From the NCBI GenBank assembly GCA_964630695.1, contig CAZVYZ010000002.1, forward strand, positions 8,951 to 72,950: a DNA stretch of 64,000 nucleotides, read 5' to 3'. The notes under the pieces were generated by a model. That model made no database searches, was not told where the DNA came from, and was given only the letters and a program-made list of their open reading frames with translations. Position 1 is the first letter of the stretch. Every line of letters begins with the position of its first letter. The translations under genes were made by a program, and so were the position numbers. The DNA comes from an uncultured Ruminococcus sp. GTDB taxonomy: Bacteria; Bacillota; Clostridia; Oscillospirales; CAG-272. Below are positions 2,625 to 56,844 of the stretch, piece after piece.

Positions 2625-2670
2625 CCTTTTTCATCTCTTTTCAGGAACGATTCTTATTCTTTTTCTCGTT

Positions 2671-18102: not shown

Positions 18103-18135
18103 ACGATGTCCTTTTTATGTTGTCCGAATCTACAG

Positions 18136-18480
18136 CTACGGAGTAATCTTCCGTGTATGAATTCCGGAATCCATAAATTCTATATATAACCTCAAGGCAC
18201 TTCTCAAAGTAGCCGTGCCATCATAAAGATTTCCATCCATCGGTACCCTATGTAGAACAGGAACGCCTAAAAGCTCTGCTCTTTTTGGATATGACAATGA
18301 ACGTAAAAGTCCATTGCACCGATTCAGTTCGTATTGCTTATCAAGGTCATACAGTTTATCCAATCGCCGACAATTGGATATGCGGCTCTCTGTAGTTTTA
18401 GCCGATAATCCCTTGGTTGCTTGTAGCCAACTCTCAAACTTTTTCTCTTCCTTCATAACTTTCCTTTCGATATACTTCAT
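18136..18480 (-). CDS. Hypothetical protein (114 aa)
   Basis: AT-rich ORF with 11-nt spacing from the upstream gene. No family recognised. Confidence 0.45.
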   Translation of the reverse strand: MKYIERKVMKEEKKFESWLQATKGLSAKTTESRISNCRRLDKLYDLDKQYELNRCNGLLRSLSYPKRAELLGVPVLHRVPMDGNLYDGTATLRSALRLYIEFMDSGIHTRKITP

Positions 18481-18491
18481 TCATTGATTTT

Positions 18492-19574: not shown

Positions 19575-19595
19575 TTTACTTTCTCTCCAAACACT

Positions 19596-20654
19596 TTATT
19601 TTCCTTCCAAATAGGTAATCGTTGCATTCGCTTGGCTACCAATTGGTTTGCCGTTCAAACCGCTCCGATAAAACACATCCCCGTTAAGCCTGATTTCTTC
19701 AAATTGCGTTTTGGTTCCTTTGTAAATATATTCTGATAGATTAGCGCAGTCAATAAATGCTCCATATCCAATTGCAACTACCGATTGAGGAATCGAAACA
19801 GATTTCAAATTCGTATTTTTATAAAAAACATAATTTCCTATTATTCTTGTACCTGTCTTGATTTCTATATTGCTCGAAAGTTTATCAACATCAGATGCGA
19901 GCAATAAATCTTTTATATAGAACATTCCGTCTTCTAAAACAGCCTGTTGTTTAAAGAATACTGTGTCCTGAAAAAGATATCTATCTGAACTAAGGAATTG
20001 GGTGGTATCTGACGTAATAACCGAAAAGCATCCAACAGTAAATTCAACTTTACTTAATATATAACATTGGTTAAAAGCACCTCTTGAAATTTCTATATTG
20101 GAACAATCAGAATCAAATACAACTGTTTCTAAAGCAATAGGATTTTTTGTTTCTTTTTGGGCGGTTGTCGTTTCAAATAAGCATCCCTCTATTGTTCTTA
20201 TATTCTTATGAATTCTTAATTCTTTAATAAAATACCTCTTGCTATAAAAAGCCTTATTACTAATTTTCGTCACAGGAATTCCATAATGCTTCAATGGTAT
20301 ATCCACTACTCCAAGATGAATAGCATCGTTTCCGCAACCAATAATCTCATATTCGGTTCCTTTTGGGTTAAGCTTAAAATCAAAGCCTTCATCTTGAAAA
20401 TGACCACATTTATTGCAGATATATGTATCCGGACCTTCTACAAATTCATGTTGCAAAGCCTCTGTATTATCCTCAGTTTTAATTTTCCCACATAAAGAGC
20501 AACGATAATTTGTATAACCGCCGTGATAGCAGTTTGCTTGGACTGTTTCTTGCTTTTCGTAATTATGGTTACATTCATTTACACCACTTGTTGATGAACA
20601 TCCTTCCATAGCCAAGCAAAACAGAAACAGTACTAATAAAAACACCTTTTTCAT
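19596..20654 (-). CDS. BspA-type leucine-rich-repeat lipoprotein, tandem paralog
   Basis: Lipobox AMEGC. CSLCGK / CNKCGH pairs. Units such as VSIPQSVVAIGYGAFIDCANLSEY. Same architecture as 18492..19574. Confidence 0.8.
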   Translation of the reverse strand: MKKVFLLVLFLFCLAMEGCSSTSGVNECNHNYEKQETVQANCYHGGYTNYRCSLCGKIKTEDNTEALQHEFVEGPDTYICNKCGHFQDEGFDFKLNPKGTEYEIIGCGNDAIHLGVVDIPLKHYGIPVTKISNKAFYSKRYFIKELRIHKNIRTIEGCLFETTTAQKETKNPIALETVVFDSDCSNIEISRGAFNQCYILSKVEFTVGCFSVITSDTTQFLSSDRYLFQDTVFFKQQAVLEDGMFYIKDLLLASDVDKLSSNIEIKTGTRIIGNYVFYKNTNLKSVSIPQSVVAIGYGAFIDCANLSEYIYKGTKTQFEEIRLNGDVFYRSGLNGKPIGSQANATITYLEGK

Positions 20655-20970
20655 ATTATCACTCCTTTTGAAAAATCTTTTTCATGGCTTTTAATTTAAA
20701 ATTTGATGTTGTATTGTCACTTTTTATCTCTTGTCATATTCTCCTTTTCCCGCTTCAATCACCTGAAATATTTTTACTGTCACTTACACGATTGAATATT
20801 ACCGCCTTTCTTGATATAAAATGTCTAACATTTTGAGATCTTCAATAAAACTCTTTTATACCCAAATCGACCTCCCCTATAACCATTATACTCTATTTTT
20901 GAGTATTTGTCAATACTCAATTATTGAGTGTGATAATATTTTATTATTACACATTTAAAAGGAGCGTTTC

Positions 20971-21195
20971 ATGGATTATCGTACTAGAATGAGAAACCTA
21001 CGGGAAGACGGGGATTTAACGCAGAGGGAAGTGGCAAAGGTCATTAACAAATCCCAGCAAGGATACAGCCACATTGAAGAAGGACGTGCTGAGTTGAAAA
21101 TTGATGATCTTATCAAGCTTTGCAAATTTTACAATGTTAGTTCTGACTATTTTATAGGAATCAGCGAATCGAAAAATATACACTACACAAAATAA
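20971..21195 (+). CDS. XRE-family HTH transcriptional regulator
   Basis: 74 aa with LTQREVAKVINKSQQGYSHIEEGRAEL. The upstream palindrome TTGAGTATTTGTCAATACTCAA overlaps its putative -35. Confidence 0.85.
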   Translation: MDYRTRMRNLREDGDLTQREVAKVINKSQQGYSHIEEGRAELKIDDLIKLCKFYNVSSDYFIGISESKNIHYTK

Positions 21196-21503
21196 ATCCC
21201 AAGTAAAACAAATAATCGCAAATATACGCGCTCGGTATCTTCCCCGCCTGTTCGCGCAGGTTCTGCCGTCCCGCCTCCGAGAATTTCAGCGAGGCGTACC
21301 AATCCTTGTTCAGCAAATACAGGAGTGGTAGATTTCCGACCACCATGCAAGCCATGATGAGATATTCCATCCGCGCGGCAAACAGGATGCCTTTGACTTC
21401 CCCCTGCACGCGGCGGATGTCTCCGAGCTTTTCGACCGTTGGCATCAGCGTGTCCTTCAGCGTTCTGTCATTCTGACAGGCAATCAGCGTAAATCTTCGC
21501 CGT

Positions 21504-21647
21504 CATGAGTTCGCGCCCCCACCAAAATCCTGAAAATATCTGCGTTTCGTGATTTTTTTGTCACCGTGCCAAAGTGCCAAAAAGGGGCAAAAAACCGGGT
21601 AAAAACCCGGTTTTTGCGAAGAATATCCATTTTATGTTCTTCATATG
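21504..21647. repeat. 144-bp direct repeat, copy A
   Basis: Near-identical to 45439-45580. It contains hairpin AAAAAACCGGGTAAAAACCCGGTTTTT. Confidence 0.9.
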
Positions 21648-21780
21648 TGTCACTCACACAATCCGGATATTTTCGGCAAAATAGCATGGCGGGGGTGAAC
21701 CCATGTCGGGATTCCCGCTGTGGCATTCGCAAGTGTTATTTACACGATCTTACTCGCCCCCGCTTTTTTTGAGAAAGTTA

Positions 21781-21809
21781 TTGACTTTTTCGGTACGGAG
21801 TGATATAAT
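21781..21809 (+). promoter_or_regulatory. Consensus sigma-A promoter for the SGNH hydrolase gene
   Basis: TTGACT, 17-nt spacer, TATAAT. Confidence 0.65.
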
Positions 21810-21915
21810 AGCATGAAAGCGGTTACACATCATTGCCGGACACCCACCGCTATGCAGGCATATTTGCCACAGCTTTGTGCTAACCCAAAAGTCGAAATGA
21901 AAAAGGAGTTCCGAT

Positions 21916-23010
21916 ATGAAACAGCTTTCTTTGGATGAAATCGATGCGAATTTCCACGTTCCGAAAACCGTGACCGATGCGGATATCACCTGGCGCGACG
22001 TGCGGCAAGCCCCCTTTGCGGTCTACGGACTTTACGACTACAAAAATACAGTCCCCTTCCGTCGGATGCCCGAGGAGACTGCCGCCGCAGTCAGCGCGGG
22101 CGTTGCCGAGCTTTCCTATAACACCGCAGGCGGGCGGGTGCGCTTCTCCACCGATTCCGACCTGATTGCCATTCACGCCACCATGAACCGCATCGGCAAA
22201 ATGCCGCATATCCCGCTCACGGGCTCCGCAGGCTTCGACCTCTATGTCGATGACCCCGCAACGGGGACGTCCCGCTATTTCCGCACCTTCATGCCGCCGT
22301 TTGACATTGTGGACGGCTACGAGGCTGCGGTCCGCTTCCCCTCGCGGAAGCTGCGGTACATCACCGTCAATTTCCCGCTTTACGCAGGGGTCGATACGCT
22401 CCTGATCGGAACGCGGGACAATGCAACGGTCGGCGAGGGACTTCGCTACCGCGACAGCGCGCCCATCGTCTATTACGGCAGCTCCATCACGCAGGGCGGT
22501 TGCGCCTCGCGCCCGGGGAACTGCTACCAGAACATTGTCGCGCGCCGCACGGGACTGGATTACGTCAACCTCGGCTTTTCCGGCAGCGGCAAGGCGGAGG
22601 ACGCGATGATCGATTACCTCGCATCGCTCGAAATGTGCGCATTCATCTCGGATTACGACCACAACGCGCCGAACCCCGAGCACCTGCGCAATACGCACTG
22701 CAAGCTCTATCAAGCAATCCGCGCCGCGCACCCCAACATCCCCTATCTCATGATTTCCCGCATCGACTTTGACAGCGCCTACACCGAGAACCTTGCGCGC
22801 AGGGATGTCATCCTCGACACCTACCGCTACGCGCTGGAGCACGGTGACCGCAACGTGTATTACATTGACGGCGCGTCGGTCTTTCGCGGTCCGGATGAGG
22901 ACGGTTGCACCGTGGACGGAACGCACCCGAACGACCACGGCTTCGCCCTTTACGCCGATGCGCTCTGTGCCGAGCTGAAACGAGCGTTCACCGAACAGGC
23001 GTTTCTGTGA
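21916..23010 (+). CDS. SGNH/GDSL-family hydrolase (carbohydrate esterase-like)
   Basis: 364 aa with block I YYGSSITQG, block III GSG and block V DGTHPND. Confidence 0.8.
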   Translation: MKQLSLDEIDANFHVPKTVTDADITWRDVRQAPFAVYGLYDYKNTVPFRRMPEETAAAVSAGVAELSYNTAGGRVRFSTDSDLIAIHATMNRIGKMPHIPLTGSAGFDLYVDDPATGTSRYFRTFMPPFDIVDGYEAAVRFPSRKLRYITVNFPLYAGVDTLLIGTRDNATVGEGLRYRDSAPIVYYGSSITQGGCASRPGNCYQNIVARRTGLDYVNLGFSGSGKAEDAMIDYLASLEMCAFISDYDHNAPNPEHLRNTHCKLYQAIRAAHPNIPYLMISRIDFDSAYTENLARRDVILDTYRYALEHGDRNVYYIDGASVFRGPDEDGCTVDGTHPNDHGFALYADALCAELKRAFTEQAFL

Positions 23011-45438: not shown

Positions 45439-45580
45439 CATGAGTTCGCGCCCCACCAAAATCCTGAAAATATCTGCGTTTCGTGATTTTTTTGTCACCG
45501 AGTCAAAGTGCCAAAAAGGGGCAAAAAACCGGGTAAAAACCCGGTTTTTGCGAAGAATATCCATTTATGTTCTTCATATG
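45439..45580. repeat. 144-bp direct repeat, copy B
   Basis: Near-identical to 21504-21647. It ends at CATATG, directly abutting the tmRNA 3'-end duplicate. Confidence 0.9.
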
Positions 45581-45598
45581 GTGGAAGTGATGGGAATC
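45579..45598 (-). repeat. Duplicate of the tmRNA 3' end (att remnant 1)
   Basis: TGGTGGAAGTGATGGGAATC is identical to 56454-56473. The flanking CTGAACCG mimics the T-loop. Confidence 0.85.
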
Positions 45599-45778
45599 TG
45601 AACCGAAATGTGCGGTTCAGACAGTGCGTCGCCTTTCGGAGGACTGTCGCACATTCATTCCGCCGTCTTTTGATTAGAGATACGCTTTTTGTTTCATGCG
45701 GCGGAGTGGGTTCGATTTTTTCGAGCGTTCTACCAAGCAACAAGAGAACCGACGCAATGCGTCGGTTCTCTTGTTGCT

Positions 45779-45798
45779 TGGTGGAGATGATGGGAATC
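45779..45798 (-). repeat. Degenerate duplicate of the tmRNA 3' end (att remnant 2)
   Basis: TGGTGGAGATGATGGGAATC has 2 mismatches to the ssrA 3' end and lies 100 nt from the integrase stop. Confidence 0.8.
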
Positions 45799-45898
45799 TA
45801 CACAAACGCCCAATATATCTATATTTTGTGTAAATCATCATTCACAGAACACAATATATAGTATTCAAGGACGGTATGTTTTGTTACATAACATTTCG

Positions 45899-47038
45899 TT
45901 AGATTTTCGAGATGATATCCAGTTTGTCCTCTTCGTATAAGTGACCGTAAGTTTTCATTACTTGTTCCACTGTATCGCCAATCAAATCCGCAACCACCAT
46001 TATATTTGCACCGAGGTGTATCAACATAGAGACAAACGAATGCCGAAGATCGTGTAACCGAATCGGCTCTAATCCAGCCTTTTTGCAGTAGACGAGAAAA
46101 CGATGCCTCACGGTATTTTCTGCAAATGGAGTCTCTCCACCAAAGAAAAATGTCTTCTGTCCATTATAGCCTTTCAGAATCTCCTGCAACGGCTTGCAAA
46201 TCGGCGTTGTCGCTTTTTTCTCATTCTTGGTGTTTGTGATTGTATATGGCGTTCCATCATGCGTCTTGCGTGAGTATGTCTTTGTAAAACTGATTCGATC
46301 CGGCTTGATGTCCTCATACTGTAAAGCGAGAACCTCACCCTTTCTTCTTCCGGTATAAAACAGAACCGCGAAAAAGGCTTTGTACCTTTGGTCATCCACA
46401 ACAGAAAGAAACTGTTGGAACTGTTCCTTCGTCCAAAATTTCATTTCCGTTTTCTGCGCGCGCTTCTTCGGTGGTTTCACCCTACGGAGACTGTTCGGAA
46501 TCCCATATCGGCTTTCTGCATAGGAAAGGATCGGCATCAGGATGTTTCGGATTTTCGCCGTATACGCTTGTGAATATGGCTCTCCGTTCGGTTTACGCAT
46601 TGCCAGAATCTCGTCCTGCCAACGAAATAGGCGCTCCGTTGTCAAGTCACACAGCTTCTCTTTGCCGAGAGAAGGCTTGATATATAGGTCATACAGCTGT
46701 TTTTTGTCCCAAATCGTAGAGCCTTTGTTTTGGGCGCTTGCAGCAGCAAGATAGATTGGGAACATTTCTTCAACAGTATAATCATGCACCGCTGCGGAAG
46801 TGTCTGCGGCTTTTTTCTTGTTTGCAACATCCGGGGAAATCAACTCGCAGTACTTGGTAACGAAATCGATGTACCCGCGCCCCGCTTCTTTTCTCGACTT
46901 AAAGCCGCAAAGCCGTTTCTGCTTTGTCTGCCCGTCGAGCGTGACCACGCGAAACACAATATCAAACGAGGACTTGCCGTCTTTCATGATGCGTTCCTGT
47001 ACGCTGTATTTATTCGAGGTGATATATAACTCTGTCAT
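45899..47038 (-). CDS. Tyrosine recombinase / phage integrase
   Basis: 379 aa with an N-terminal arm-binding-like domain, TGRRKGEVLAL, HDLRHSFVSML and GHLY (catalytic Tyr). Confidence 0.9.
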   Translation of the reverse strand: MTELYITSNKYSVQERIMKDGKSSFDIVFRVVTLDGQTKQKRLCGFKSRKEAGRGYIDFVTKYCELISPDVANKKKAADTSAAVHDYTVEEMFPIYLAAASAQNKGSTIWDKKQLYDLYIKPSLGKEKLCDLTTERLFRWQDEILAMRKPNGEPYSQAYTAKIRNILMPILSYAESRYGIPNSLRRVKPPKKRAQKTEMKFWTKEQFQQFLSVVDDQRYKAFFAVLFYTGRRKGEVLALQYEDIKPDRISFTKTYSRKTHDGTPYTITNTKNEKKATTPICKPLQEILKGYNGQKTFFFGGETPFAENTVRHRFLVYCKKAGLEPIRLHDLRHSFVSMLIHLGANIMVVADLIGDTVEQVMKTYGHLYEEDKLDIISKI

Positions 47039-47148
47039 AGCAATCCTCCTTATTATGTTTTATTCTGCCAATTTGTCACCGATAAATAGCCAAGTTACCT
47101 AATGACTTTTCCATTTTTCAAAAATAAATTAGTTTCGACAAAATTCAC

Positions 47149-47177
47149 TTGACTTTTAACAAACTATGAATTATAAT
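47149..47177 (+). promoter_or_regulatory. Consensus promoter for the 47-aa sORF
   Basis: TTGACT (47149-47154), 17-nt spacer, TATAAT (47172-47177). Confidence 0.6.
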
Positions 47178-47209
47178 GAATGTAATCGAATATTAGAAAG
47201 GGGCATGAA

Positions 47210-47353
47210 ATGAACGAACTATCTGCTTTGATTGAATCCTGCGCCGACAAGCAATCCGCCATACGGATTGCAACATCCGTTATTCTGGCGTATCTTGGGC
47301 AATTGCGATCCGGTCAAGCAGTTCGTTCTGCCGGTAAAACCGGCAATACATAA
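47210..47353 (+). CDS. 47-aa sORF with its own promoter and terminator
   Basis: RBS GAAAGGGG. The product is MNELSALIESCADKQSAIRIATSVILAYLGQLRSGQAVRSAGKTGNT. It is followed by hairpin GTGGTTG..CAACCAC plus T6. Confidence 0.35.
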   Translation: MNELSALIESCADKQSAIRIATSVILAYLGQLRSGQAVRSAGKTGNT

Positions 47354-47436
47354 TATACTGTGGTTGTTTCCGTTATGGAGGCAACCACTTTTTTCGTTAA
47401 GGCATACTTGTACCAATCTTAGACGAACCTTAGACG

Positions 47437-47523
47437 AAAAAAGACCCATAGGCTCGGCATTCCTCTGATAATAGAGGGTGCGTACTGCTATGGATCGGTT
47501 GAATGTAAGCGTCCGGAACGCTT
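47437..47523 (-). ncRNA. Candidate ~87-nt small RNA (promoter and terminator only, function unknown)
   Basis: Minus strand: TTGACA (47553-47558), 17-nt spacer, TATAAT (47530-47535). The nested hairpins GATCCATAGC..GCCTATGGGTC and CCTCT..AGAGG end in T6 (47437-47442). Confidence 0.3.
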
Positions 47524-47585
47524 GCTCATATTATACCATAGAACAGCCGCTTTGTCAATAGTTCTTAAAGTTTCTAAGGTTCGGA

Positions 47586-48914
47586 TCATCCCTCGCCAAA
47601 ATATTTCATAGCCCTTCGGAATCCCTTGTCCTCTGCTTCAGCAACCGTTTTTGCAAAGAACTCGCCTCTGTTTGGCTCAATGATAACATCATCGTACTTT
47701 TGGTCAAACGGAAGATGATAGATTTTCTCTTTTGTGGTACGGTTGATGTTACATTTGATGCGCGGGAAATCCTCCAACTTTTTGTTTTCAACAGTCTCTA
47801 TGTGTAAATAACGCGCAACATCCTTTGCAGTCCTCGAAAGCGATGTAGAGGTAACAAATACACCAGATACCTCTTTCCACCGATGGCTCAACTGATACAA
47901 AACAACCGTTCCATATAGCTGAAAAATATGTTTTTCGTGGATTTCTTTTTCCTGCGACCAGTTTTTACATTGGACAATCAGAATGCGGTCTCCTTTTTCC
48001 ACTATGAGGTCTCTGCCCATATCCTCCAGCTTCTTTATGATGCCGCAATACGAAACCTTTGCGCCTTCTTTTTCATATTGGAATCCGATGAACATCTCAT
48101 AGTCTCTTCCAATTTGCCATTTTGTTTTCTTTCCTTGCAAGTATCGGTCAAGCGCAAGTTGATTCCTTTCCGTAACAGACAACTTCTGATATTCTTCTGA
48201 TGATAAAAACAGCCGCGTTCTATCGGTATCCGCTTCTGTCTCTAATTCAAAACCACCTTCTGATTCTTCAAAACCATCCTCGAAAATATCCTCTACATTT
48301 GGGAAAAGTTCAACAATGTAATTATATTTATACTCATATATTTTTTTCTCTACCAAAATGTCTTTTGTTTGCTTTTTCAATTCACGGATTCTCTTGGCTT
48401 CTGCAAAAGCTGGGCGCTCCTTAACCTCCAGCAATCTCGCCGCATAATCATAATTTATCAATTTTAGATCGGCAGATGCCGCCGCTATTCTCGGATATGC
48501 CTCGGAACATTTATCAATAATCAAATCCGTTTGCTTGGTGACAGAATTGTATATTCGGGCTGCAATCCCTCCAAGTTCTTCTTCTTTTTCCGATATTTCT
48601 TGTATCAAGCTATCTTTTTCTGTTTTAAGCTTTGCTATTTCTTCGGAGAAAGACTTCCTCTCTTTCTGTATTAAGAGATCGACATCTCTTTTTTGGTTTT
48701 CAATTTCTTGTATTTGTTGTTTTTTTCTATTCTCTTCCTCTGCTTCTTGTTTGACTCGCATCAATATTGTGCCGCAAATCTCATGATTGTCATTGTAAAG
48801 TGGAGTTACTTTCTTATTTTCTCGGAGCGAAATTGTTAGGCTATGCTGGTAGATGATATAAAGCACAATAACAATAATGATTGCAAAGAACACACCTACT
48901 GCAATAAACTCCAT
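47586..48914 (-). CDS. Membrane-anchored coiled-coil protein with Mrr-type (PD-(D/E)xK) restriction-endonuclease domain
   Basis: 442 aa with an N-terminal TM (AVGVFFAIIIVIVLYIIY) and a Lys/Glu-rich coiled coil. Nuclease core GRDYEMFIGFQYE..GRDLIVEKGDRILIVQCKNW. Confidence 0.65.
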   Translation of the reverse strand: MEFIAVGVFFAIIIVIVLYIIYQHSLTISLRENKKVTPLYNDNHEICGTILMRVKQEAEEENRKKQQIQEIENQKRDVDLLIQKERKSFSEEIAKLKTEKDSLIQEISEKEEELGGIAARIYNSVTKQTDLIIDKCSEAYPRIAAASADLKLINYDYAARLLEVKERPAFAEAKRIRELKKQTKDILVEKKIYEYKYNYIVELFPNVEDIFEDGFEESEGGFELETEADTDRTRLFLSSEEYQKLSVTERNQLALDRYLQGKKTKWQIGRDYEMFIGFQYEKEGAKVSYCGIIKKLEDMGRDLIVEKGDRILIVQCKNWSQEKEIHEKHIFQLYGTVVLYQLSHRWKEVSGVFVTSTSLSRTAKDVARYLHIETVENKKLEDFPRIKCNINRTTKEKIYHLPFDQKYDDVIIEPNRGEFFAKTVAEAEDKGFRRAMKYFGEG

Positions 48915-48915
48915 G

Positions 48916-49281
48916 TCACTTCTCCGTTTTTTTCAGCCCTGACATCTTCAGAGCCGTTTCTATCAAAGCCAACAATTCCTTTTGGTTTTCTTTCGGCACA
49001 GACTGAAACAACCGATGCATCTCTTTCTCTTCCTCTGTCATTGTACTATAAGTCGGTTTTTCTTCTCTTTCTACGGATACTTCACAACCCATGAGCCAAG
49101 ATTCACTGACACATAAAGCAACTGCAAGTTTATGGAGCGCAATTTGGCGCGCCTCATGCCGACCGTTCATATACTGACTTATCTGTGCTTTTGAAAGTCC
49201 GGACAATCTGGCTAAGTCTGCGGCTTTTACCCCTCTCATATCCATAGCTTCCAATAATCTCTTTTGAAAAGTGCTTTCCAT
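48916..49281 (-). CDS. CI-like XRE-family repressor
   Basis: 121 aa with RLLEAMDMRGVKAADLARLSGLSKAQISQYMNG. Divergent from the cro-like gene. Confidence 0.85.
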   Translation of the reverse strand: MESTFQKRLLEAMDMRGVKAADLARLSGLSKAQISQYMNGRHEARQIALHKLAVALCVSESWLMGCEVSVEREEKPTYSTMTEEEKEMHRLFQSVPKENQKELLALIETALKMSGLKKTEK

Positions 49282-49313
49282 ATTTTCTCCATGTCAAAAT
49301 TACCTTTTTCTAT

Positions 49314-49432
49314 ATTATACACCGCAGTTAAACCAATTTCAAGAGGAAAATAAAAAAATTAAAATATTTTTACGAAACCACTTGACAAGCAGTGTTAAAT
49401 ATGTTATACTATTGTCAGTTAAATAAGTTTAA
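49314..49432. promoter_or_regulatory. Divergent lysogeny-switch promoters and operator palindrome
   Basis: Minus strand: TTGAAA-17-TATAAT (49337-49342 / 49314-49319). Plus strand: TTGACA-17-TATACT (49382-49410). Palindrome GTTAAATAAGTTTAAC (about 49417-49432), with GTTAAAC half-sites. Confidence 0.6.
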
Positions 49433-49452
49433 CCAAAAAGGGAGGTTATAAG

Positions 49453-49674
49453 ATGTTCAACTATTCAAAGTTGAGGGGAAGAATCCGCGAGAAATATGAT
49501 ACACAGTCAAATTTTGCGCAGAAAATGGGCATTTCTACTGTGTCTGTGTCGTGCAAACTTGGAAACAAGGCACAATGGACACAAGAAGAAATTTTGAAAG
49601 CAGCACAGCTTCTCGAAATTTCAAACGAAGAAATACCGACATATTTTTTTACCGAAAGAGTTAAGGATATTTAA
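49453..49674 (+). CDS. DUF739-family Cro-like protein
   Basis: 73 aa: MFNYSKLRGRIREKYDTQSNFAQKMGIS... This matches the phage DUF739 pattern as I recall it. Confidence 0.75.
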   Translation: MFNYSKLRGRIREKYDTQSNFAQKMGISTVSVSCKLGNKAQWTQEEILKAAQLLEISNEEIPTYFFTERVKDI

Positions 49675-49859
49675 CTACATGGCGCAAAAATTCGTAAAAG
49701 GAGGAGAAAATGGACTTTATACAACGTAAAAAAGCAGAAGCTAAAGACATTCAGTCGATGATTGAACTTACATCTGAGATATAATATTCTTAGAACTCAA
49801 CTTCATGATTATTATAACATGAGAATTAAATTTTGTCAAGATTAAAGGAGGAAAATACA

Positions 49860-50051
49860 ATGTCTATCGGACGAAACATCATGATTCTCTCTTTCGACAA
49901 GCGGATCACACAGAAGGAACTCGCAGAAGCGGCAGGGGTTACGGAATCTATGATTTCAAAAATCATTAACACCGACCTGATTCCATCCGTTGTAAAACTG
50001 AAGAGGATTGCGGACAAGCTCGGCGTTACAATTGACGATCTGCTGAAATAA
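49860..50051 (+). CDS. XRE-family HTH protein
   Basis: Start at MSIGRNIMILSFDKRITQKELAEAAGVTESMISKIIN with an AAAGGAGG RBS. Confidence 0.75.
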   Translation: MSIGRNIMILSFDKRITQKELAEAAGVTESMISKIINTDLIPSVVKLKRIADKLGVTIDDLLK

Positions 50052-50201
50052 GGAGGAGAACATGGAAGAAATCTTTGCAGAGATGGACAGAATCACCGAA
50101 AAGTTTTACAACGAGATCGACCGACTGACGGAGAAGCTACAGCCGAAGCAACGACCGTACATCCGGAAGATTGTGTCAGAGGCTACGAAAGGAGAACAGC
50201 A

Positions 50202-50564
50202 ATGACCACGGAAGAAACCAACCAAGAGGTTGTTCCCGTAAAAATGACCCTCGCACAGCGGCGTGAGATGTTCGCAAAGGATTACCTTGACCTGACCGAT
50301 CTGACCATGCTGCTCGGCATCTGCTACACGAGGGCATCGGAAATCGTGCGGGAGATCAAGTTCAACACCCGCGACCGTCTGCACACAAGAGGAAGAGTAC
50401 ATGTGCAGGACTACTTCGACTACTACGGACTTGACCCAAAGAACTACTATCGCTTCAGCGCGGAGGACACCGAAAATGATGAACCGAATGCCGGAAGCAA
50501 TGAACGATTTCTATCAAAGGAGGATCAGAAAAAATGTGGATCGACAAGAATTACAAAGGATTGA
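50202..50564 (+). CDS. Hypothetical phage protein, possible excisionase-like DNA binder
   Basis: 120 aa. The LTDLTMLLGICYTRASEIVREIK segment looks HTH-like. No firm family assignment. Confidence 0.45.
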   Translation: MTTEETNQEVVPVKMTLAQRREMFAKDYLDLTDLTMLLGICYTRASEIVREIKFNTRDRLHTRGRVHVQDYFDYYGLDPKNYYRFSAEDTENDEPNAGSNERFLSKEDQKKCGSTRITKD

Positions 50565-51169
50565 AGCAGATTGAGAACGGCGACTATGTGCTGGAAGGTG
50601 ATCTGATTTCCGATGAGGAGATCGAAATCGATCTGGATGACAGATTGATTGTCCGTGGAGATGTGATTTCCAAAAAGTATATCAAAGCAGATCGCGCTTT
50701 GATTGCAGAAAAGAGTATCAAAGCCAGTGATGGCATCAAAGCCGGTCGGGGCATCAAAGCCGGTGATGGCATCGAAGCCGGTTGGGGCATCGAAGCCGGT
50801 GATGGCATCGAAGCCGGTTGTGGCATCAAAGCCGGTCGGGGCATCAAAGCCAGTGATGGCATCAAAGCCGGTCGGGGCATCAAAGCCAGTGATGGCATCG
50901 AAGCCGGTTGGGGCATCAAAGCCGGTTATGGCATCGAAGCCGGTTGGGGCATCAAAGCCGGTGATGGCATCGAAGCCGGAACATTCATAGACTCCGGAAA
51001 TCGTATCTTCGCAGGTATTTCTGTTTACAGAACCAGTGATGATTGTGAAAAATTCATTCGATGCTCAGAACTGCGAAACGGTGAAATATGCTACGGGGAT
51101 CTGATTATTACAGAGAAGAAAGAGGAAGTTGAAAATGGAACAGAAAAAGAAAACCATGGTAACCGATGA
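50534..51169 (+). CDS. Hexapeptide-repeat (GI[KE]A[GS]x) beta-solenoid-like protein
   Basis: 211 aa with 15 consecutive 6-residue units encoded by an 18-bp tandem repeat, flanked by unique N- and C-terminal regions. Confidence 0.6.
   Translation: MWIDKNYKGLKQIENGDYVLEGDLISDEEIEIDLDDRLIVRGDVISKKYIKADRALIAEKSIKASDGIKAGRGIKAGDGIEAGWGIEAGDGIEAGCGIKAGRGIKASDGIKAGRGIKASDGIEAGWGIKAGYGIEAGWGIKAGDGIEAGTFIDSGNRIFAGISVYRTSDDCEKFIRCSELRNGEICYGDLIITEKKEEVENGTEKENHGNR
50714..50983 (+). repeat. 18-bp tandem repeat x15 inside the CDS
   Basis: The unit is GGCATC[A/G]AAGCC[G/A]GTNNN. Higher-order 36-bp duplications are visible. All six frames are open across it. Confidence 0.9.
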
Positions 51170-51383
51170 TGAAGTGGAGATTGAGATCGCGCATCTGCTT
51201 GCCGATCCTGATGTGAAGTTGGCAAAGGCGGAGGAACGCATCAGAACCCGCCGCAGACAGTACCTCTACCAGTTGAGAAGCCGTCGCAGGCGCGGCATGG
51301 CTCTGCGGTTGATCGGAGTCGATGAAGATGCCCTGCGCCGCCGCGATCCATACGACCCAATGTATGAGGAGGAATTACGATGA
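51129..51383 (+). CDS. Hypothetical phage protein (84 aa, Arg-rich)
   Basis: ORF in the early-gene series. No family recognised. Confidence 0.45.
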   Translation: MKMEQKKKTMVTDDEVEIEIAHLLADPDVKLAKAEERIRTRRRQYLYQLRSRRRRGMALRLIGVDEDALRRRDPYDPMYEEELR

Positions 51384-51549
51384 AACAGACACTGAAAGCG
51401 ATCTCCGAATGGTTTCGATTCCTTGTAACCGGGAAGTCGGACAAGGCAGTTTCGGACAAGCTGTGTGACTTCTCCGGACAAGGGCGCGACCGGTACGGTC
51501 GGTAAATCAATAATAAGAACTGATTTCATTCTAAAAGGAGAACAGAAAA

Positions 51550-51846
51550 ATGGCAACACTTTACGAAATCAACGAGCAGATTGCGGGGCTTGTAGACCCA
51601 GAAACCGGAGAGATCGCCGACTTTGAAGCATTTGAGAAACTGAACCTCGACCTTGATACGAAAATCAAGAACATCGCGCTGTGGATCGTCAACCTCCGCT
51701 CCGATGCGGAGCAGTTGGAGGAGCAGGAAAAGAAATTCCGTGACAGAAAGACCGCCGCGAAGAACAAAGCGGAATCCCTGAAAAGTCTGCTTGACGGCTT
51801 CCTTTCCGGCGAGAAGCGTTCTTTCCCAGAGGTGGTCATCTCTTAG
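51550..51846 (+). pseudogene. Siphovirus Gp157-like protein, C-terminally truncated
   Basis: MATLYEINEQIAGLVDPETGEI...KIKNIALWIVNLRSDAEQLEEQEKKFRDRK matches the Gp157 N-terminal two-thirds. It ends at 98 aa, exactly at the junction with the portal gene. Confidence 0.55.
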
Positions 51847-53303
51847 CTGTCCGTGATGCCGATATTCCGCTTTGCCATTTCATACTGCCGCTCCGACTGT
51901 TGCATATCCTGTTGGATTGACATTTCACAAGTGATGCTCCCGATGCAGTCCCGCGCGATCTGTCCCTCCGGCACTTCAAGCGATTGGTCGAAGATCCCGT
52001 TTGAAATGGTAGTTGATACACCCTTTCTGTGAAACTCGATTGCACCTGAACGCATCAGCTTTTCGTGAATGCGGCTCTCCAGTTTGTTGATTTCCTGCTG
52101 TTGCGGGCGGATGACCTCGCAGTCACTCTGACCGTACAGGCTTTTCGGAATGGACACATTGCGGCGGCAGATCACGGGGAGGCGCTTGGGCTTGTAGTAG
52201 GGCAGTCTCGTGGGAGCGGTTTTGGGGCGAAGGACTTTGTGCATCTGCGGGATGATTGCGCCCGTTGCCGTCCGTTGCATCACAGGCTCTCCTGTTTCAT
52301 CGAGAACCGGTTCGTCCGCCTCTTCCATCACAGGCTCTCCGTCCTTGTAGACCGGGCTGAACGCGGGAATCTTCTTCTGTACCCGTTGCTTGATGACCGC
52401 TCCCGTGGAGGTCATCACATCCTCATATGCGTAATCGGGGAGGATAATATCCTCGGTCAGTTCCTCGTAATCCTCGTCCTGCATTTCGTAATCGGGATCG
52501 GAGCAGGGGTTCTCTTCGCACAGTTCCTTCCGTTTGCCGCAACAGCGGCAGATGTACTTCTTCCGCGCGTAATAGTCATCCACATCCTGCAATTCGGTGT
52601 CTCCGCTCCAGACGTACTTGCATACTGCTCCGCTTTCGTTCCGCCAAAAGCAGGTGTACACCGTCACCACATTGTACTGCTCCAAGCCGACATCGTCATC
52701 CTCGGGATCGATGTCGGATTCCTCCGCAACACGGAGCGGGACACCGTATGTCCGCATGATGTCCTCCCTTGTCATACGGGAGCGGATGAAGATGTATTCC
52801 ATTTCGTTGACATCGTAAATACCCGGCTGCGGGATGATGTCGGACGGGTCGATGATCGACACCTTGCCCTCGCCGACCGTGAAGTGCGTTCGGACGCTGT
52901 TGTCGAACTCAACCAGATAAAAGGTCGCGCCGAGGGTCGGAGCGTAGAACTCGTCGGTGTTGTTCAACCGTTCAAACGGCAGCTTGTCCCGAAGCATATT
53001 CAGAAGCCGCTCGGTCGCTTTGGCGTTCCGATCGGTGTGCTGAAGCGATATGCGGGGCGTGACCTTCGGCGCGGGTATCCGCATATCTTTCTGGCTCTCA
53101 ATCAGTTCGCGGGTGATATTGCGGACAACGATTGCGTCATCCGGAATTTCCGAAGAATCATCCACCGGATCGATCTTCTTTGAACCGTTGTACTGCTCGA
53201 TATTTCTTTTGTTGAGTGTCATCTGCCGCTCATAGTCGGGATGCGTTTTTGCATCCTGCATCAGCTTCTCGAAGAACTCGCGTTTATTACCATCAATTCT
53301 CAT
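51843..53303 (-). CDS. Probable phage portal protein
   Basis: 486 aa. Called by position immediately downstream of terminase large subunit and by size. No motif verified. Confidence 0.5.
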   Translation of the reverse strand: MRIDGNKREFFEKLMQDAKTHPDYERQMTLNKRNIEQYNGSKKIDPVDDSSEIPDDAIVVRNITRELIESQKDMRIPAPKVTPRISLQHTDRNAKATERLLNMLRDKLPFERLNNTDEFYAPTLGATFYLVEFDNSVRTHFTVGEGKVSIIDPSDIIPQPGIYDVNEMEYIFIRSRMTREDIMRTYGVPLRVAEESDIDPEDDDVGLEQYNVVTVYTCFWRNESGAVCKYVWSGDTELQDVDDYYARKKYICRCCGKRKELCEENPCSDPDYEMQDEDYEELTEDIILPDYAYEDVMTSTGAVIKQRVQKKIPAFSPVYKDGEPVMEEADEPVLDETGEPVMQRTATGAIIPQMHKVLRPKTAPTRLPYYKPKRLPVICRRNVSIPKSLYGQSDCEVIRPQQQEINKLESRIHEKLMRSGAIEFHRKGVSTTISNGIFDQSLEVPEGQIARDCIGSITCEMSIQQDMQQSERQYEMAKRNIGITDS

Positions 53304-53315
53304 TGGATATCCTCC

Positions 53316-53603
53316 TTAAAAGTATCTGTAGCCTGTGGGCGCTCCGCCCATCATTTTTTCCATAGCAACACGGACATCGGCAGAAGCCCGACACCAATCG
53401 TCGTACATATCCTTTGTCCACAGTCGCTCCTCCCGTTCTTCGCGCTCAGGTGCGGCGGAAGTCCACGCGATCATTCCGTACCGTAGGCTGTCGCAGTTAT
53501 GGACGATCAGCCCACCATTTACAGAGAAGCAATGTGTCTTTTTTACATAAAGGTCATATACCGGTTCCGGATCATTTTGCACAGTTATTCGCTTGATACG
53601 CAT
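53316..53603 (-). CDS. terL: Terminase large subunit, C-terminal fragment preceded by a 36-aa split-intein C-half
   Basis: MRIKRITVQNDPEPVYDLYVKKTHCFSVNGGLIVHN (intein blocks F/G, 53496-53603) is followed by CDSLRYGM..., the conserved terminase nuclease motif. Confidence 0.75.
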   Translation of the reverse strand: MRIKRITVQNDPEPVYDLYVKKTHCFSVNGGLIVHNCDSLRYGMIAWTSAAPEREEREERLWTKDMYDDWCRASADVRVAMEKMMGGAPTGYRYF

Positions 53604-54136
53604 TTTGCTGTCCTTTCTGCTGCTCTACGTCTCAGAAGCGCTTTCGCTTTGCAGTTGTTCCCGCAGAATTTACTCTTATATGCCATCATAGAAATCGTTT
53701 CGTATTCTTTTCCGCAAACCTGACAGACCTTTTTAACCTTTTCACTCATGTGTTTTCCAATTGAGTTGTTCCACTGGCTTTTATGCCATTCGCGTCCCGT
53801 TTCGCTCCTATGCCATTCTGGTGCTTTTGCAATTGCCTGTACGATATTCCGTTTTGCGCTTTCTATCCTTTCTGTCTGATTGCAATGAATCCGGTTGTGC
53901 TCTTTTTCTAACAGCATTTGCAGATTGCTTATGTCATTGTTTTCTCTGTCCCAATCGATATGGTGAATATCATATCCTTTCGGAATCTCCCCGTTGTATT
54001 TTTCCCATACATAGATATGCAGTCTTTTTGGCTTTCCGTTTACAGATCCCAAATAGTATCCCTGTTCCGTGTTCCAAAATTTGATACCATCGTAGATTAC
54101 TGTTTTCTGCGTTCCGTGTCCTTTTGTATGTCGCAT
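53585..54136 (-). CDS. Free-standing HNH homing-type endonuclease
   Basis: Start at MRHTKGHG with an AGAGGGGGA RBS, 183 aa. HIYVWEKYNGEIPKGYDIHHIDWDRENNDISNLQMLLEKEHNRIH, with a C-terminal CxxC..CxxxC. It overlaps both terL fragments in a third frame. Confidence 0.8.
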   Translation of the reverse strand: MRHTKGHGTQKTVIYDGIKFWNTEQGYYLGSVNGKPKRLHIYVWEKYNGEIPKGYDIHHIDWDRENNDISNLQMLLEKEHNRIHCNQTERIESAKRNIVQAIAKAPEWHRSETGREWHKSQWNNSIGKHMSEKVKKVCQVCGKEYETISMMAYKSKFCGNNCKAKALLRRRAAERTAKCVSSE

Positions 54137-55722
54137 ATATCGTCCCCCTCTTTCAAATTCTTTGCCGCAACCCATCCGCGATTTGTCGTGAGAATGCGGT
54201 GATCTGCGGTGCATTTTATTGTTCTCCCATCTTCCAACTCGATGCAAAGCACCTTTGCGCACGGGTTTGTCATAAAGCACTTGCTATATTCCGCTTCGCA
54301 TGAAATTCCATTGTCGTAAGATAAAACCACACCGCTTGTACCAACCATATCACGAATCATTCTTTGCCCGCTCGGAGTATCCACCATCGTATCTCCCACT
54401 AGACAAACGTGCGTGATGTCGTGCGGCTCGGTCATGCAGTCGGTCGGATGCTTCGGGTCGATCTGGAGCAGGGGAATATCGTGGATCAGTCTGCGGCAGT
54501 TCCGGAAAATCTGCATCTTCGGCAGTCCGTCCGGCTGAATCCGAAGAACCGATTTGACGGAAAGCCACCCCGCCTCACGGTCATTTGATGCCTCTACGAG
54601 CGGAAGACCCGCCGCGCGGAACAGATCAGCTTTTGTCTTGCCTGTCTCCTGCGTTCGGGAACGGATAATATCGGGTGGCGCCCATGTTGCCGCAATCTCT
54701 TCGCCGCTCTCCGTGTACTCCAACGCTTTGCCTGCCGCATCCTCGATTGTCAGATTCGGGGAGCAGAACTCTTTGTAGATGTAAACCCTCCCGTCGGGGG
54801 AGATTGCAAACCACAGCATGGCGAACATATCCAAGCCGTAGTCCAGACAGCGGTATTTCTTCCAGTGCGCCGGGATTGGGAACGGCTCGATGACATGGAT
54901 CGCCGGGTCGAACTCTGTAAAATACTGCCCCTCGATGACATCCCATCGTCCCTCCAGAAGCGTCTGCCGCAGAATCTCCGGAAGAGTCTCCATGCTTTTC
55001 AGGTATTCCGGGTCGTTCTCCATCAGATAGGCGTTCTCGGTCAGCTTGGCGGGGATGAACATCCTGCGCCGACCGTCCTTGCCCACAAACGGCGTCTCCG
55101 GCTCTGCCGGGTCTACAAAGTTTTCCTTCACCCATGCGTGTCCCACGTTTCCGGGGTTCGTGGAGAGAGCGAGAAATCGCGGTGCAGGGAAGCGACCGCG
55201 AACACGGGAACGGAGATAGACAAATTGGTCATAGGTGAAGTGTGTGGCTTCGTCCAATCGAATCACATCGAATTCCGCGCCCTGATATTGGAATACATCG
55301 TTCTCATTGGCGCAGTATCCGAACCGGATGGTTGACCCGTTCCAAAGCGTTCCGACATGCTTGGAAGAATTGTACCGATACCACGGCTCTCCGGGGAAGT
55401 GCTTGAAATGCTCCTTGATGAGAGAGCCTTCCAGTTCCACGAATGTCCGCCGCAACATCAGCTGTGTAGAACCGGGGTAATCAATAGCATAGAGCAGAGC
55501 CGCAATGCACTGTGCCGCGCTCTTGCCGCCGCCTGCCGCCCCTCCGTACATGATTTCATCCACACCGCGTTCGAATACGAATTTCTCCTGCTTCGGGAGC
55601 AGTTCAATGTGTAGCTTCGGTTCTTCGCGCTTTCGTTTCTGCCCGGCAATCTTCTTTGCCTTCGCATACTCCCGCCGATTCAGTCCGGCAATTACGAACT
55701 TTGCATATTCCTCTCCGGTCAT
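54097..55722 (-). CDS. terL: Terminase large subunit, N-terminal 439 aa fused to a 102-aa split-intein N-half
   Basis: Walker A GGAAGGGKS and Walker B DVIRLDEATHF. At residue 440 the sequence becomes CLVGDTMVDT...KCTADHRIL (intein blocks A/B, 54100-54405), then stops. Confidence 0.85.
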   Translation of the reverse strand: MTGEEYAKFVIAGLNRREYAKAKKIAGQKRKREEPKLHIELLPKQEKFVFERGVDEIMYGGAAGGGKSAAQCIAALLYAIDYPGSTQLMLRRTFVELEGSLIKEHFKHFPGEPWYRYNSSKHVGTLWNGSTIRFGYCANENDVFQYQGAEFDVIRLDEATHFTYDQFVYLRSRVRGRFPAPRFLALSTNPGNVGHAWVKENFVDPAEPETPFVGKDGRRRMFIPAKLTENAYLMENDPEYLKSMETLPEILRQTLLEGRWDVIEGQYFTEFDPAIHVIEPFPIPAHWKKYRCLDYGLDMFAMLWFAISPDGRVYIYKEFCSPNLTIEDAAGKALEYTESGEEIAATWAPPDIIRSRTQETGKTKADLFRAAGLPLVEASNDREAGWLSVKSVLRIQPDGLPKMQIFRNCRRLIHDIPLLQIDPKHPTDCMTEPHDITHVCLVGDTMVDTPSGQRMIRDMVGTSGVVLSYDNGISCEAEYSKCFMTNPCAKVLCIELEDGRTIKCTADHRILTTNRGWVAAKNLKEGDDICDIQKDTERRKQ

Positions 55723-56126
55723 TTCTTTTCCTCTTTCCTGCTGACGATAACATTCAGCGTTCCTCCGCCGGAATTCAACTCCACATTGGCTTTCTCGTCC
55801 TTTTCTCTGTACCCGTGATTTGCCGCAAGCAGGAACTTTGCAAAGCCGGGATCAAATACCCGTGTCAACCCGCCGTTGATCAACATCCGCTCCTGTATCC
55901 GCATGGCTTCCACGAAAGCCGTTGCAAAGTCATCATGCTCTCTGACCCAAGCGCAACAGGCATCGGTATATGTCCCAATGCTTTGAGCGAACCGTTGCAG
56001 TGTCGGCACGCCCACTTCCTCGCCCTCCGAATAATGCCTGAAGAACTCCAACAGCTTCCCGGCATACTCCGGATTGTAATCTGACTTTGCCCTGACCACA
56101 TTCCGAGACCCCTTTGGTCTCCCCAT
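55719..56126 (-). CDS. terS: Probable terminase small subunit
   Basis: Start at MGRPKGSRN, 135 aa with an HTH-like N-terminus. 4-nt overlap with the terL start. Confidence 0.6.
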   Translation of the reverse strand: MGRPKGSRNVVRAKSDYNPEYAGKLLEFFRHYSEGEEVGVPTLQRFAQSIGTYTDACCAWVREHDDFATAFVEAMRIQERMLINGGLTRVFDPGFAKFLLAANHGYREKDEKANVELNSGGGTLNVIVSRKEEKK

Positions 56127-56453
56127 GCTCTCACATCCTTTCACGCGCGTAATGATCGAAAAATACTCTGTTTTTATTATTTTACAGGGATAACAGGTAT
56201 AAAAAAAGCCCCGATTGGTTCAAAATCGGGGGTAAATGGTTCAACTTTTCGTATTTTCAGAGTATTTCATGGAAAAAGAAAAAGGACACCGAAGCAGGTG
56301 TCCTTCAATCGCGACTTTGGATTTTCGATGTAACAAAAAATGTAACAAAACGAGTCAAAATCGGTGTAAATCAGTGTAACACGGAAGCAGAGAACCACAA
56401 TATCTTGTTTTGCAAGCGCGCATTATTAACAAGATATTGTGGTTTCCGGATAT

Positions 56454-56844
56454 TGGTGGAAGTGATGGGAATCGAACCCATGTCCGAAAACCCCTTGACA
56501 CAACTTTCTTCGTGGACAGTCTGTTCTTTATTCTTCCCGTTCAGAGACGCGAGCAGACACGCTTCCCCTCACGGTAGCACCTTTTTTCCTGACCGGTTCA
56601 GGCGCGACCGCCGATGCAGGTTCACCGCTCATTTGACGCTCAGTCCCAAGCCGCGGTACTCATGGGAGGAACGGGTGACCCGCAGGTCACGGCACTGCTT
56701 GAATTTTACGCTTTCGCGTAAAACTCAGGCAGCCATAGCAACAGTATCGTTGTCGTTTATTATTTGTTTTGGGCAGTTTTCGAGTTTACCCGGCTCGCCA
56801 CGCTTATCATGCCTCAGAATCCCCGTCGAAACCTTTACACCCCC
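56454..56844 (-). ncRNA. ssrA: tmRNA (SsrA)
   Basis: Minus strand 5' GGGGGTGTAAAGGTTTCGACGGGG ... GGGTTCGATTCCCATCACTTCCACCA 3'. Internal tag frame ...AAC GAC AAC GAT ACT GTT GCT ATG GCT GCC TGA (NDNDTVAMAA-stop). smpB lies 850 nt upstream. Confidence 0.9.

Follow-up and report, generated by a model that had tools for sequence, protein, structure and literature searches.

A terminase large-subunit gene (terL) in a 64,000-nucleotide (nt) stretch of DNA from an uncultured Ruminococcus sp. (contig CAZVYZ010000002.1; this whole stretch is called the window below) is, as our analysis supports, fractured by a naturally split class-1 intein with an HNH endonuclease gene between the two intein halves, and is not a frameshifted contiguous intein. 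We put at about 80% the probability that the locus is a genuine fractured terL, in which a split class-1 intein, a separately translated HNH_3 protein, trans-splicing and homing belong together and which now lies stranded in a prophage remnant.

Layout of the fractured terminase gene

An earlier note on this DNA had described three overlapping open reading frames (ORFs) at this place, and a re-reading of the ORFs returned its coordinates, sequences, overlaps and frames exactly to the base (Table 1). Neighboring ORFs overlap by 40 nt (54097..54136, the N-terminal ORF and the HNH gene) and by 19 nt (53585..53603, the HNH gene and the C-terminal ORF), and the three occupy three different frames (offsets 1586 mod 3 = 2 and 533 mod 3 = 2). 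The N-terminal ORF, whose start overlaps the stop of the small-subunit gene terS (ATGA), carries a Walker A (GGAAGGGKS) and a Walker B motif (VIRLDEA). A Pfam search placed Terminase_3 and Terminase_6N above their cut-offs on its first 260 residues, and the N-extein matches the terminase large subunit of PHROG 979 (E = 1.6e-46). Directly after EPHDITHV, the reading turns to CLVGDTMVDT...IKCTADHRIL...RRKQ, the N-terminal half of an intein (IntN). The C-terminal half (IntC) and the last part of TerL stand in the third ORF, and the HNH gene lies between the two. The own starts proposed for the HNH and IntC ORFs were confirmed, each being an ATG with a Shine-Dalgarno sequence; that of IntC, at 53603, has AAAGGA 7 nt upstream.

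Once the intein is removed, the ATPase domain with its Walker motifs and the C-terminal nuclease domain would form one protein. The earlier note had predicted that joining the exteins would restore a canonical TerL of 498 amino acids (aa), and a natural allele bears this out: the closest non-split homolog, P0002 (99% identical), runs through 498 aa in one ORF, reads ...EPHDITHI-CDSLRYGM... at the junction, and equals the predicted spliced product in length and sequence. The C-extein is identical to its C-terminus. A sequence search with P0002, which stands for the spliced sequence, found no match in the PDB. The motif H...D-x-x-R-Y, which we take to be the metal-binding motif of the TerL nuclease, is interrupted at this junction.

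Identity of the intein halves

Both halves were recognized by hidden Markov models of inteins, as the earlier note had anticipated. The NCBIfam model intein_Nterm (TIGR01445) scored 27.8 bits on residues 440-512 of the N-terminal ORF (cut-off 24.5), and intein_Cterm (TIGR01443) scored 21.7 bits on residues 14-37 of the C-terminal ORF (cut-off 15.6). The two ORFs cover complementary parts of the 155 positions of Intein_splicing (PF14890), namely 11-101 and 122-155. Matches of the ORFs to intein, HNH and terminase profiles are far beyond chance.

The catalytic set of a class-1 intein is complete, with Cys1, the block B T-x-x-H (TADH), the penultimate His, the terminal Asn and Cys+1; the C-terminal splicing region reads ...PVYDLYVKKTHCFSVNGGLIVHN followed by the +1 Cys. 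In an alignment of 21 fused IntN and IntC pairs of the family, Cys1, the block B Thr and His and the terminal Asn are invariant, and the penultimate His and Cys+1 are at least 90% conserved. The fused halves also align to solved mini- and split inteins (Pho RadA, NrdJ-1, gp41-1, DnaE, DnaB and RecA; E down to 3e-7, by sequence matching to the PDB). Since these alignments, those to NrdJ-1 and Pho RadA among them, run uninterrupted across the break between residues 102 and 103, the split falls at the loop where endonucleases are canonically inserted.

Each intein half stands on a polypeptide of its own with one extein, with a stop after IntN and a separate start for IntC, and the same arrangement is found in the related loci L002, L004, L005, L081 and L007. 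Because stops close the intein frame, the intein is truly split.

The endonuclease gene

The HNH ORF matches HNH_3 (PF13392, E = 9.5e-15) and phrog_15471 (E = 2.6e-30), and its residues H58, H59, N66, N67, N71, H80 and H84 are invariant in alignment A1. Its homologs number 596, and the best 120 of them are all stand-alone proteins of 167-242 aa that contain PF13392 only, without intein fusion, so that among these the HNH is always a free-standing gene product. We presume it to be the homing endonuclease of the cassette formed by IntN, HNH and IntC.

Recurrence of the layout and selection on its parts

An exact-protein look-up found the triplet of 541-, 183- and 95-aa genes in other public assemblies. 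One of these, L001, is 100% identical to the window and is probably the same strain. Over up to 3 kb, the three independent assemblies L002, L004 and L005 match the window at 97.5, 97.4 and 94.9% identity with 0 gaps, and because these diverged assemblies keep the layout without indels, it is not an assembly artefact. L081, a locus in a metagenome-assembled genome (MAG) from NCBI, is more distant (92% identity in the N-terminal ORF) and shows an identical layout inside a fuller prophage. A further locus, L007, has a TerL only 50% identical to that of the window, and yet the same three genes in the same order, with overlaps of 8 and 23 nt; its IntN and HNH are equally diverged from those of the window (48-49%). 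The division into IntN, HNH and IntC genes, as opposed to a frameshifted intein, was thus upheld by the recurrence of the layout without indels in L001, L002, L004 and L005, and also by L081 and L007.

Codon differences from L002 are mostly synonymous (synonymous to non-synonymous 41:5 in the N-terminal and 6:0 in the C-terminal ORF). For the exteins, the ratio of non-synonymous to synonymous divergence (dN/dS, Nei-Gojobori) is 0.02-0.07; IntN has 0.03-0.13, and IntC, which shows zero non-synonymous differences from either L002 or L081, has 0. Strong purifying selection acts on the TerL exteins and on the two halves of the intein.

An empty site and a cassette that moves apart from its flanks

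The earlier note had pointed to related prophages as a place where split, contiguous and intein-free alleles of this TerL might be sought. Split alleles were found in L002, L081 and L007, contiguous TerL inteins with a nested HNH gene in 21 loci described below, and an intein-free allele in L006, the locus of P0002. L006 is a phage locus 94.6-97.7% identical to the window. In blastn it aligns to window positions 56460..54404 and then 53495..51844; because the alignment skips what lies between, the element is exactly 53496..54405, from the codon of Cys1 to that of the terminal Asn. The empty-site sequence at the junction reads CACGACATCACGCACATT / TGCGACAGCCTACGGTAC, and in L006 CACGACATCACGCACATT / TGCGACAGCC. 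No HNH gene was found in the sequenced stretch of L006, which holds terS, terL, the portal gene and genes downstream of the portal.

In a nucleotide comparison with L081, the cassette of the window is 95.4% identical, against 83.2% for the N-extein and 68.9% for the C-extein; identity falls sharply at the C boundary, and ahead of the N boundary it climbs step by step across the final ~60 nt. Synonymous divergence (dS) follows the same course: the N-extein stands at 0.91 and the C-extein is saturated, against 0.20, 0.14 and 0.11 in IntN, HNH and IntC. Presence or absence at one precise site and spread independent of the flanks were both seen for the cassette. A recent transfer of IntN-HNH-IntC from one terL allele to a diverged one, accompanied by some co-conversion, would be expected to leave this pattern, a classical footprint of homing, and we infer that the HNH protein would be the maker of the break.

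The close intein-free alleles P0002-P0004 all keep Cys at +1 (H(I/V)-C-D(S/A)LRY). By motif search, 13 of 14 more distant intein-free TerLs from Clostridia MAGs (L082-L095) have Pro at this position (H(L/V)-P-DALRY). The +1 Cys of the intein-free alleles may be a footprint of past occupancy by the intein or a precondition for its invasion. The relatives of this TerL that a GTDB genome scan found are all distant and intein-free; they come from gut MAGs of Clostridia and Oscillospiraceae and point to a host among the gut Clostridia.

Proposed mechanism

The cassette interrupts the codons for the nuclease active-site motif of TerL, between ...HDITHV and CDSLRY. In a live phage, IntN (102 aa) and IntC (36 aa) would bring the two TerL polypeptides together, and protein trans-splicing would then ligate the TerL parts and free the intein halves, giving a 498-aa TerL with a complete nuclease motif, H...CDSLRY. 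The HNH protein, for its part, would cut intein-free terL alleles met in co-infection or in a lysogen, and repair from the occupied allele would copy the entire cassette.

Spread of the arrangement in phages

IMG/VR was scanned with the HNH alignment, which gave 71 loci holding this HNH family. In 31 of them, an IntN ORF, an HNH ORF and an IntC ORF follow one another where the TerL of the window is interrupted too (...(D/N)H, C...HN, C(x)DA(L/T)RY); how the three ORFs stand in frame to one another differs from locus to locus, and all kinds of relation occur. In another 21 (L028, L037, L047, L048, L051, L055, L056, L059, L062, L064-L076), the TerL intein ORF is contiguous and the HNH gene is nested in another frame. 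None of the 71 (0/71) has the HNH in frame with the intein. In the nested form, the in-frame translation across the HNH gene is a low-complexity linker of ~200 aa, an overprinted spacer around which the intein would have to splice.

Every state is represented among isolated phages. Lactobacillus phage CL2 (L008, NC_028835) has a fractured TerL whose C-terminal fragment, at 2490..2774, is unannotated. Brochothrix phage BL3 (L009) has a split TerL intein, its gp3 (2311..2607) being IntC with the TerL C-terminus, and its HNH is reduced to a zinc-finger remnant at 2298..2420. Since these phages are viable and TerL is essential, we infer that the split form must yield an active terminase. In Clostridium phage phiCDHM19 (L097, 443..2842), the HNH is nested out of frame within a contiguous 800-aa TerL. 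Pseudomonas phage PAE1 (L096, NC_028980) carries an HNH relative (2265..2882) between an uninterrupted terL, whose tail reads ...EDHIADCIRYRV, and the portal gene, with no intein; this free-standing HNH is a possible ancestral state of the association.

The C-terminal ORF of the window is matched by PHROG 28563 ("unknown function"). A homolog search with the fused mini-intein returned only three clusters of C-terminal fragments, its reach being limited by a word prefilter. With the 95-aa C-terminal ORF as the query, a full HMMER scan found 142 matches among 1.84 billion representative proteins; 97 of them are stand-alone proteins of at most 140 aa, and 70 of these 97 have the TerL junction.

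Beyond terminases, IntN-like sequences beside "hypothetical protein" ORFs interrupt ribonucleotide reductase genes of Campylobacter phages, one record of which is annotated "this gene has been disrupted", and such sequences likewise interrupt DNA helicase genes of Salmonella S16-like phages. They are probably additional cases of gene fracture among phage isolates.

Weighing of alternative explanations

Two indel errors in one contiguous HNH-containing intein would give just such three frames with short overlaps. However, L002, L004 and L005, which come from other samples, and L081 hold the same frames with 0 gaps across the region, L007 and the 31 IMG/VR loci share the architecture with other overlaps and other frame combinations, and no in-frame HNH-intein occurs among the best 120 of the 596 HNH homologs, so that a sequencing or assembly artefact is effectively refuted. 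Programmed ribosomal frameshifting, which would fuse the three ORFs into a contiguous intein-HNH precursor, draws on the short overlaps and on the fact that both junctions need a shift in the same direction (-1/+2), but we give it next to no credence. By eye, neither overlap shows an in-frame X XXY YYZ slippery heptamer; the start codons with their Shine-Dalgarno sequences are conserved; and the frame relations change across the family, IntN and HNH sharing a frame with a stop between them in L022/L023 and CL2, and IntN and IntC sharing one in L010. The frameshift reading was rejected on the missing heptamer and on this variation. A truly frameshifted bifunctional intein in a dead gene, that is, a TerL pseudogene without splicing, would suit the position of the window copy in a deleted prophage remnant with a truncated portal, as well as the relaxed constraint and window-private substitutions of the HNH. 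It is nonetheless very unlikely, for purifying selection acts on both extein parts and both intein halves across lineages, the intein catalytic residues are conserved family-wide, both downstream ORFs have their own start codon and Shine-Dalgarno sequence, and the layout is retained where more of the prophage is left, on the contigs L002 (44.8 kb) and L081 (47.5 kb), as is the split TerL in CL2 and BL3, isolated phages that cannot do without TerL.

It would be a different matter if the intein halves kept the two TerL fragments together in a working complex, without ligation. Pieced genes that work without splicing exist, the split NrdA of phage Aeh1 being one (cited in PMC2677866; PMC3045599). 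Such non-covalent rescue is nevertheless improbable here: the residues needed only for splicing (Cys1, T..H, His-Asn and Cys/Ser+1) are invariant or nearly so in 21 family members, and the break lies within the nuclease motif H..CDxxRY, where 138 extra residues would occupy the active site. In addition, the related fractured-gene inteins gp41-1 and NrdJ-1, whose solved structures were matched here, are known for efficient splicing. The HNH could also be a packaging co-factor of the terminase, of the HK97 gp74 type, instead of a homing endonuclease, as terminase-adjacent HNH proteins can be required for cos cleavage (Kala et al. 2014, cited in PMC10448857). This we hold to be highly improbable, because the gene belongs to PF13392, is inherited and transferred with the intein halves as a single block of low divergence, is missing from the intein-free locus L006 in the sequenced stretch from terS past the portal, and has left nothing beyond a zinc-finger remnant in BL3; its absence from L006 is the ground on which this role was rejected. 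Each of these rivals (artefact, pseudogene, non-covalent complex, packaging HNH and frameshift) is contradicted by at least two independent results. Finally, the split intein may have been co-opted as a switch of the terminase nuclease, since the motif H...C-D-x-x-R-Y is complete only after two polypeptides splice. Such a switch would delay or dose DNA cleavage with respect to the ATPase and to prohead assembly, and it could explain why the fractured form persists down to 50% TerL identity and in many phage lineages; we regard it as unlikely.

Several points weigh against a functional fractured gene with a homing cassette. Its trans-splicing and its HNH cleavage and homing are drawn from sequence patterns. 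PF14890 scored 34.8 bits on the N-terminal ORF, slightly below the gathering score of 35.8, and a single-sequence AlphaFold2 model of the fused halves reached an uninformative pLDDT of 35, so that their Hint fold is predicted from sequence homology. The dN/dS of the HNH is ~1.0 against L002 (from only 11 substitutions) and 0.24-0.27 against L081, and five replacements are private to the window lineage (G62W, H81N, P88T, A113T and R168L), G62W sitting beside the HH motif, so that the window copy of the endonuclease may be decaying. The low divergence of the cassette could in principle come from gene conversion without the HNH. Lastly, with head and tail genes missing and the portal truncated, TerL has no evident role in this genome.

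A prophage remnant beside the tmRNA gene

The fractured terL lies between two exact copies of an attachment (att) core, and the plus-strand core sequence, TGGTGGAAGTGATGGGAATC, equals the CCA end of a transfer-messenger RNA (tmRNA) gene (Table 1). From the tmRNA, the order is terS, the fractured terL, portal, ~2.5 kb of early-region fragments, a helix-turn-helix (HTH) gene, a Mrr-type nuclease gene and the integrase; no head, tail or lysis genes were found between the repeats. The integrase is homologous to the one directly upstream of terS in L002 and L081, a position expected for the circular form. Homology to every relative ends at 51844 (blastn). Because att repeats bound the copy, homology stops at 51844 and structural genes are missing, the window copy sits in a deletion remnant of a prophage that had integrated at the tmRNA gene, a setting that the earlier note had not recognized, and this genome has therefore probably lost its need for a functional TerL. 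The terL copy is intact, though probably idle, and the cassette is most likely a recently stranded, still intact copy.

Table 1 Features of the fractured terL locus and its surroundings in the window.
Feature	Position	Strand	Description
TerL-N+IntN ORF	54097..55722	minus	541 aa; 439 extein + 102 intein residues, then stop
TerL N-extein, residues 1-439	54406..55722	minus	ATPase domain and most of nuclease domain; ends ...EPHDITHV
IntN, 102 codons + TAA stop (54097..54099)	54097..54405	minus	Cys1, block B TADH
HNH_3 gene, from own ATG	53585..54136	minus	183 aa; ATG preceded by GAGGGGGA
IntC+TerL-C ORF	53316..53603	minus	95 aa; MRIKRITVQNDPEPVYDLYVKKTHCFSVNGGLIVHN then CDSLRYGM...
IntC, 36 codons from own ATG	53496..53603	minus	blocks F and G, end ...LIVHN
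TerL C-extein, 59 codons + stop	53316..53495	minus	starts with Cys+1 (CDSLRYGM...)
Mobile cassette IntN-HNH-IntC	53496..54405	minus	910 nt; missing from empty-site allele
terS, small terminase subunit gene	55719..56144	minus	Pfam GP3_package E = 4.2e-7
Truncated portal gene	51843..53303	minus	phrog_156; 486 aa vs 686-689 aa in relatives
HTH_3 gene adjoining Mrr	48916..49281		inside remnant
Mrr_cat-type restriction endonuclease gene	47586..48914		inside remnant
Tyrosine integrase	45899..47038	minus	Phage_integrase E = 7.3e-17
Prophage remnant between repeats	45599..56453		~10.9 kb
att core copy 1	56454..56473		20 nt; 3' end of tmRNA, beside terS
att core copy 2	45579..45598		TGGTGGAAGTGATGGGAATC; exact 20-nt direct repeat
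tmRNA gene	56454..56844	minus	ARAGORN; tag DNDTVAMAA
Two paralogous BspA-type leucine-rich-repeat proteins	18492..19574, 19596..20654	minus	in low-GC island

Within the remnant, 47586..49281 is a patch of low GC content (about 37-43%). Its HTH part is 96.6% identical to L081, and the Mrr gene, which has no counterpart there, may represent an inserted defence gene. The same prophage has decayed in a different way at 5277..6288 of L003, an 86.6-kb bacterial contig (ENA ERZ18533980): a deletion corresponding to window 53837..55978 has removed part of terS, TerL-N with IntN and the first half of the HNH gene, and a 95-aa IntC+TerL-C ORF and a full 686-aa portal are retained. Elsewhere in the window, 18000..22000 is a low-GC island (36-39% against about 54% around it), which holds the two BspA-type proteins.

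Comparison with known systems

By size, the two halves belong to the class of the cyanobacterial DnaE split inteins, which measure about 102-123 aa (N) and 35-36 aa (C). The DnaE inteins (Npu, Ssp) also share the canonical split site and the Cys1/Cys+1 chemistry; they differ in having their halves at loci far from each other and no endonuclease gene, whereas the halves in the window lie 0.5 kb apart with the HNH gene between them. TerL inteins are common in Firmicutes prophages.

"Fractured genes", in which a split intein goes with a free-standing endonuclease, were defined from Global Ocean Sampling (GOS) data by Dassa et al. 2009 (PMC2677866), and their examples include a phage terminase. 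Because such genes, a terminase among them, were described then, the present arrangement belongs to a known kind. The window agrees with the 2009 definition in its co-oriented halves, its split intein and the free-standing endonuclease between them, and it resembles the published cases in its two adjacent, co-oriented host genes with overlapping coding regions, in its phage-like locus and terminase host, and in the sizes of IntN and IntC, which fit the reported ranges of 88-105 and 33-54 aa (PMC2677866). It differs from them in its endonuclease, theirs being GIY-YIG or Vsr-like, with HNH merely predicted to be possible; and the 2009 terminase is split at an unusual point, with a 122-aa C-terminal part, in contrast to the canonical 102/36 split with an HNH_3 gene seen here (PMC2677866).

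That terminase lineage led to the characterized AceL-TerL, GOS-TerL and Cat-TerL inteins (PMC11766414). These too are naturally split class-1 inteins in phage TerL with Cys+1, but by their sizes alone they contrast with the window, being atypically split with an IntN of 25-37 aa and an IntC of 104-115 aa (PMC11766414). With halves of 102 and 36 aa, the window falls outside the atypically split TerL class (IntN 25-37, IntC 104-122 aa). It is not a contiguous bifunctional HNH intein either, as stops part the ORFs and the best 120 HNH homologs contain no intein domain.

Another likeness is the DNA polymerase B gene of Pseudomonas phage MIJ3, with a putative split intein and an HNH homing-endonuclease ORF between the halves (PMC6892783); it differs in its host gene and its intein, and is a single genome report. 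A 2025 survey of actinobacteriophages described homing endonucleases in another reading frame of inteins, free-standing endonuclease genes having invaded intein coding regions as appears here, with split inteins as one outcome (bioRxiv 10.1101/2025.01.02.630785). The nested form of our HNH family (21 IMG/VR loci and phiCDHM19) fits that description. The out-of-frame enzyme of the survey is Endonuclease VII-like and its HNH enzymes are in frame, unlike ours, and the intein of the window is truly split (bioRxiv 10.1101/2025.01.02.630785). In the open literature, subscription-only papers lying outside the search, we found nothing that describes a TerL intein split at the canonical site together with an HNH_3 gene, or how abundant it is, and no explicit description of the split terminases of BL3 or CL2, or of a canonical-site trans-splicing TerL.

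Meaning for the family

The earlier note had taken the layout to be rare and knew of none in a terminase. This did not hold, given the 2009 terminase, the known AceL- and GOS-TerL inteins and the frequency of the canonical-site TerL form in phages. The arrangement itself is not a new principle, and its novelty is more modest than had been supposed. What is added here is evidence that the cassette homes as a unit, a series of four states of one HNH family, and the size of the family. The HNH is free in PAE1, nested in phiCDHM19 and the 21 loci, placed between the intein halves in the window, CL2 and the 31 loci, and lost in BL3, a series that matches the steps of the gene-breaking model of 2009.

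In phages, associations of a TerL intein with an HNH form a large and poorly annotated family, of which this element is a member. BL3 gp3, the unannotated ORF of CL2 and PHROG 28563 are missing terminase ends, and database records that name the N-terminal fragment "terminase large subunit" are incomplete. At least 70 clusters (50% identity) of canonical-site split inteins with Cys1 and Cys+1 are potential orthogonal pairs for trans-splicing.

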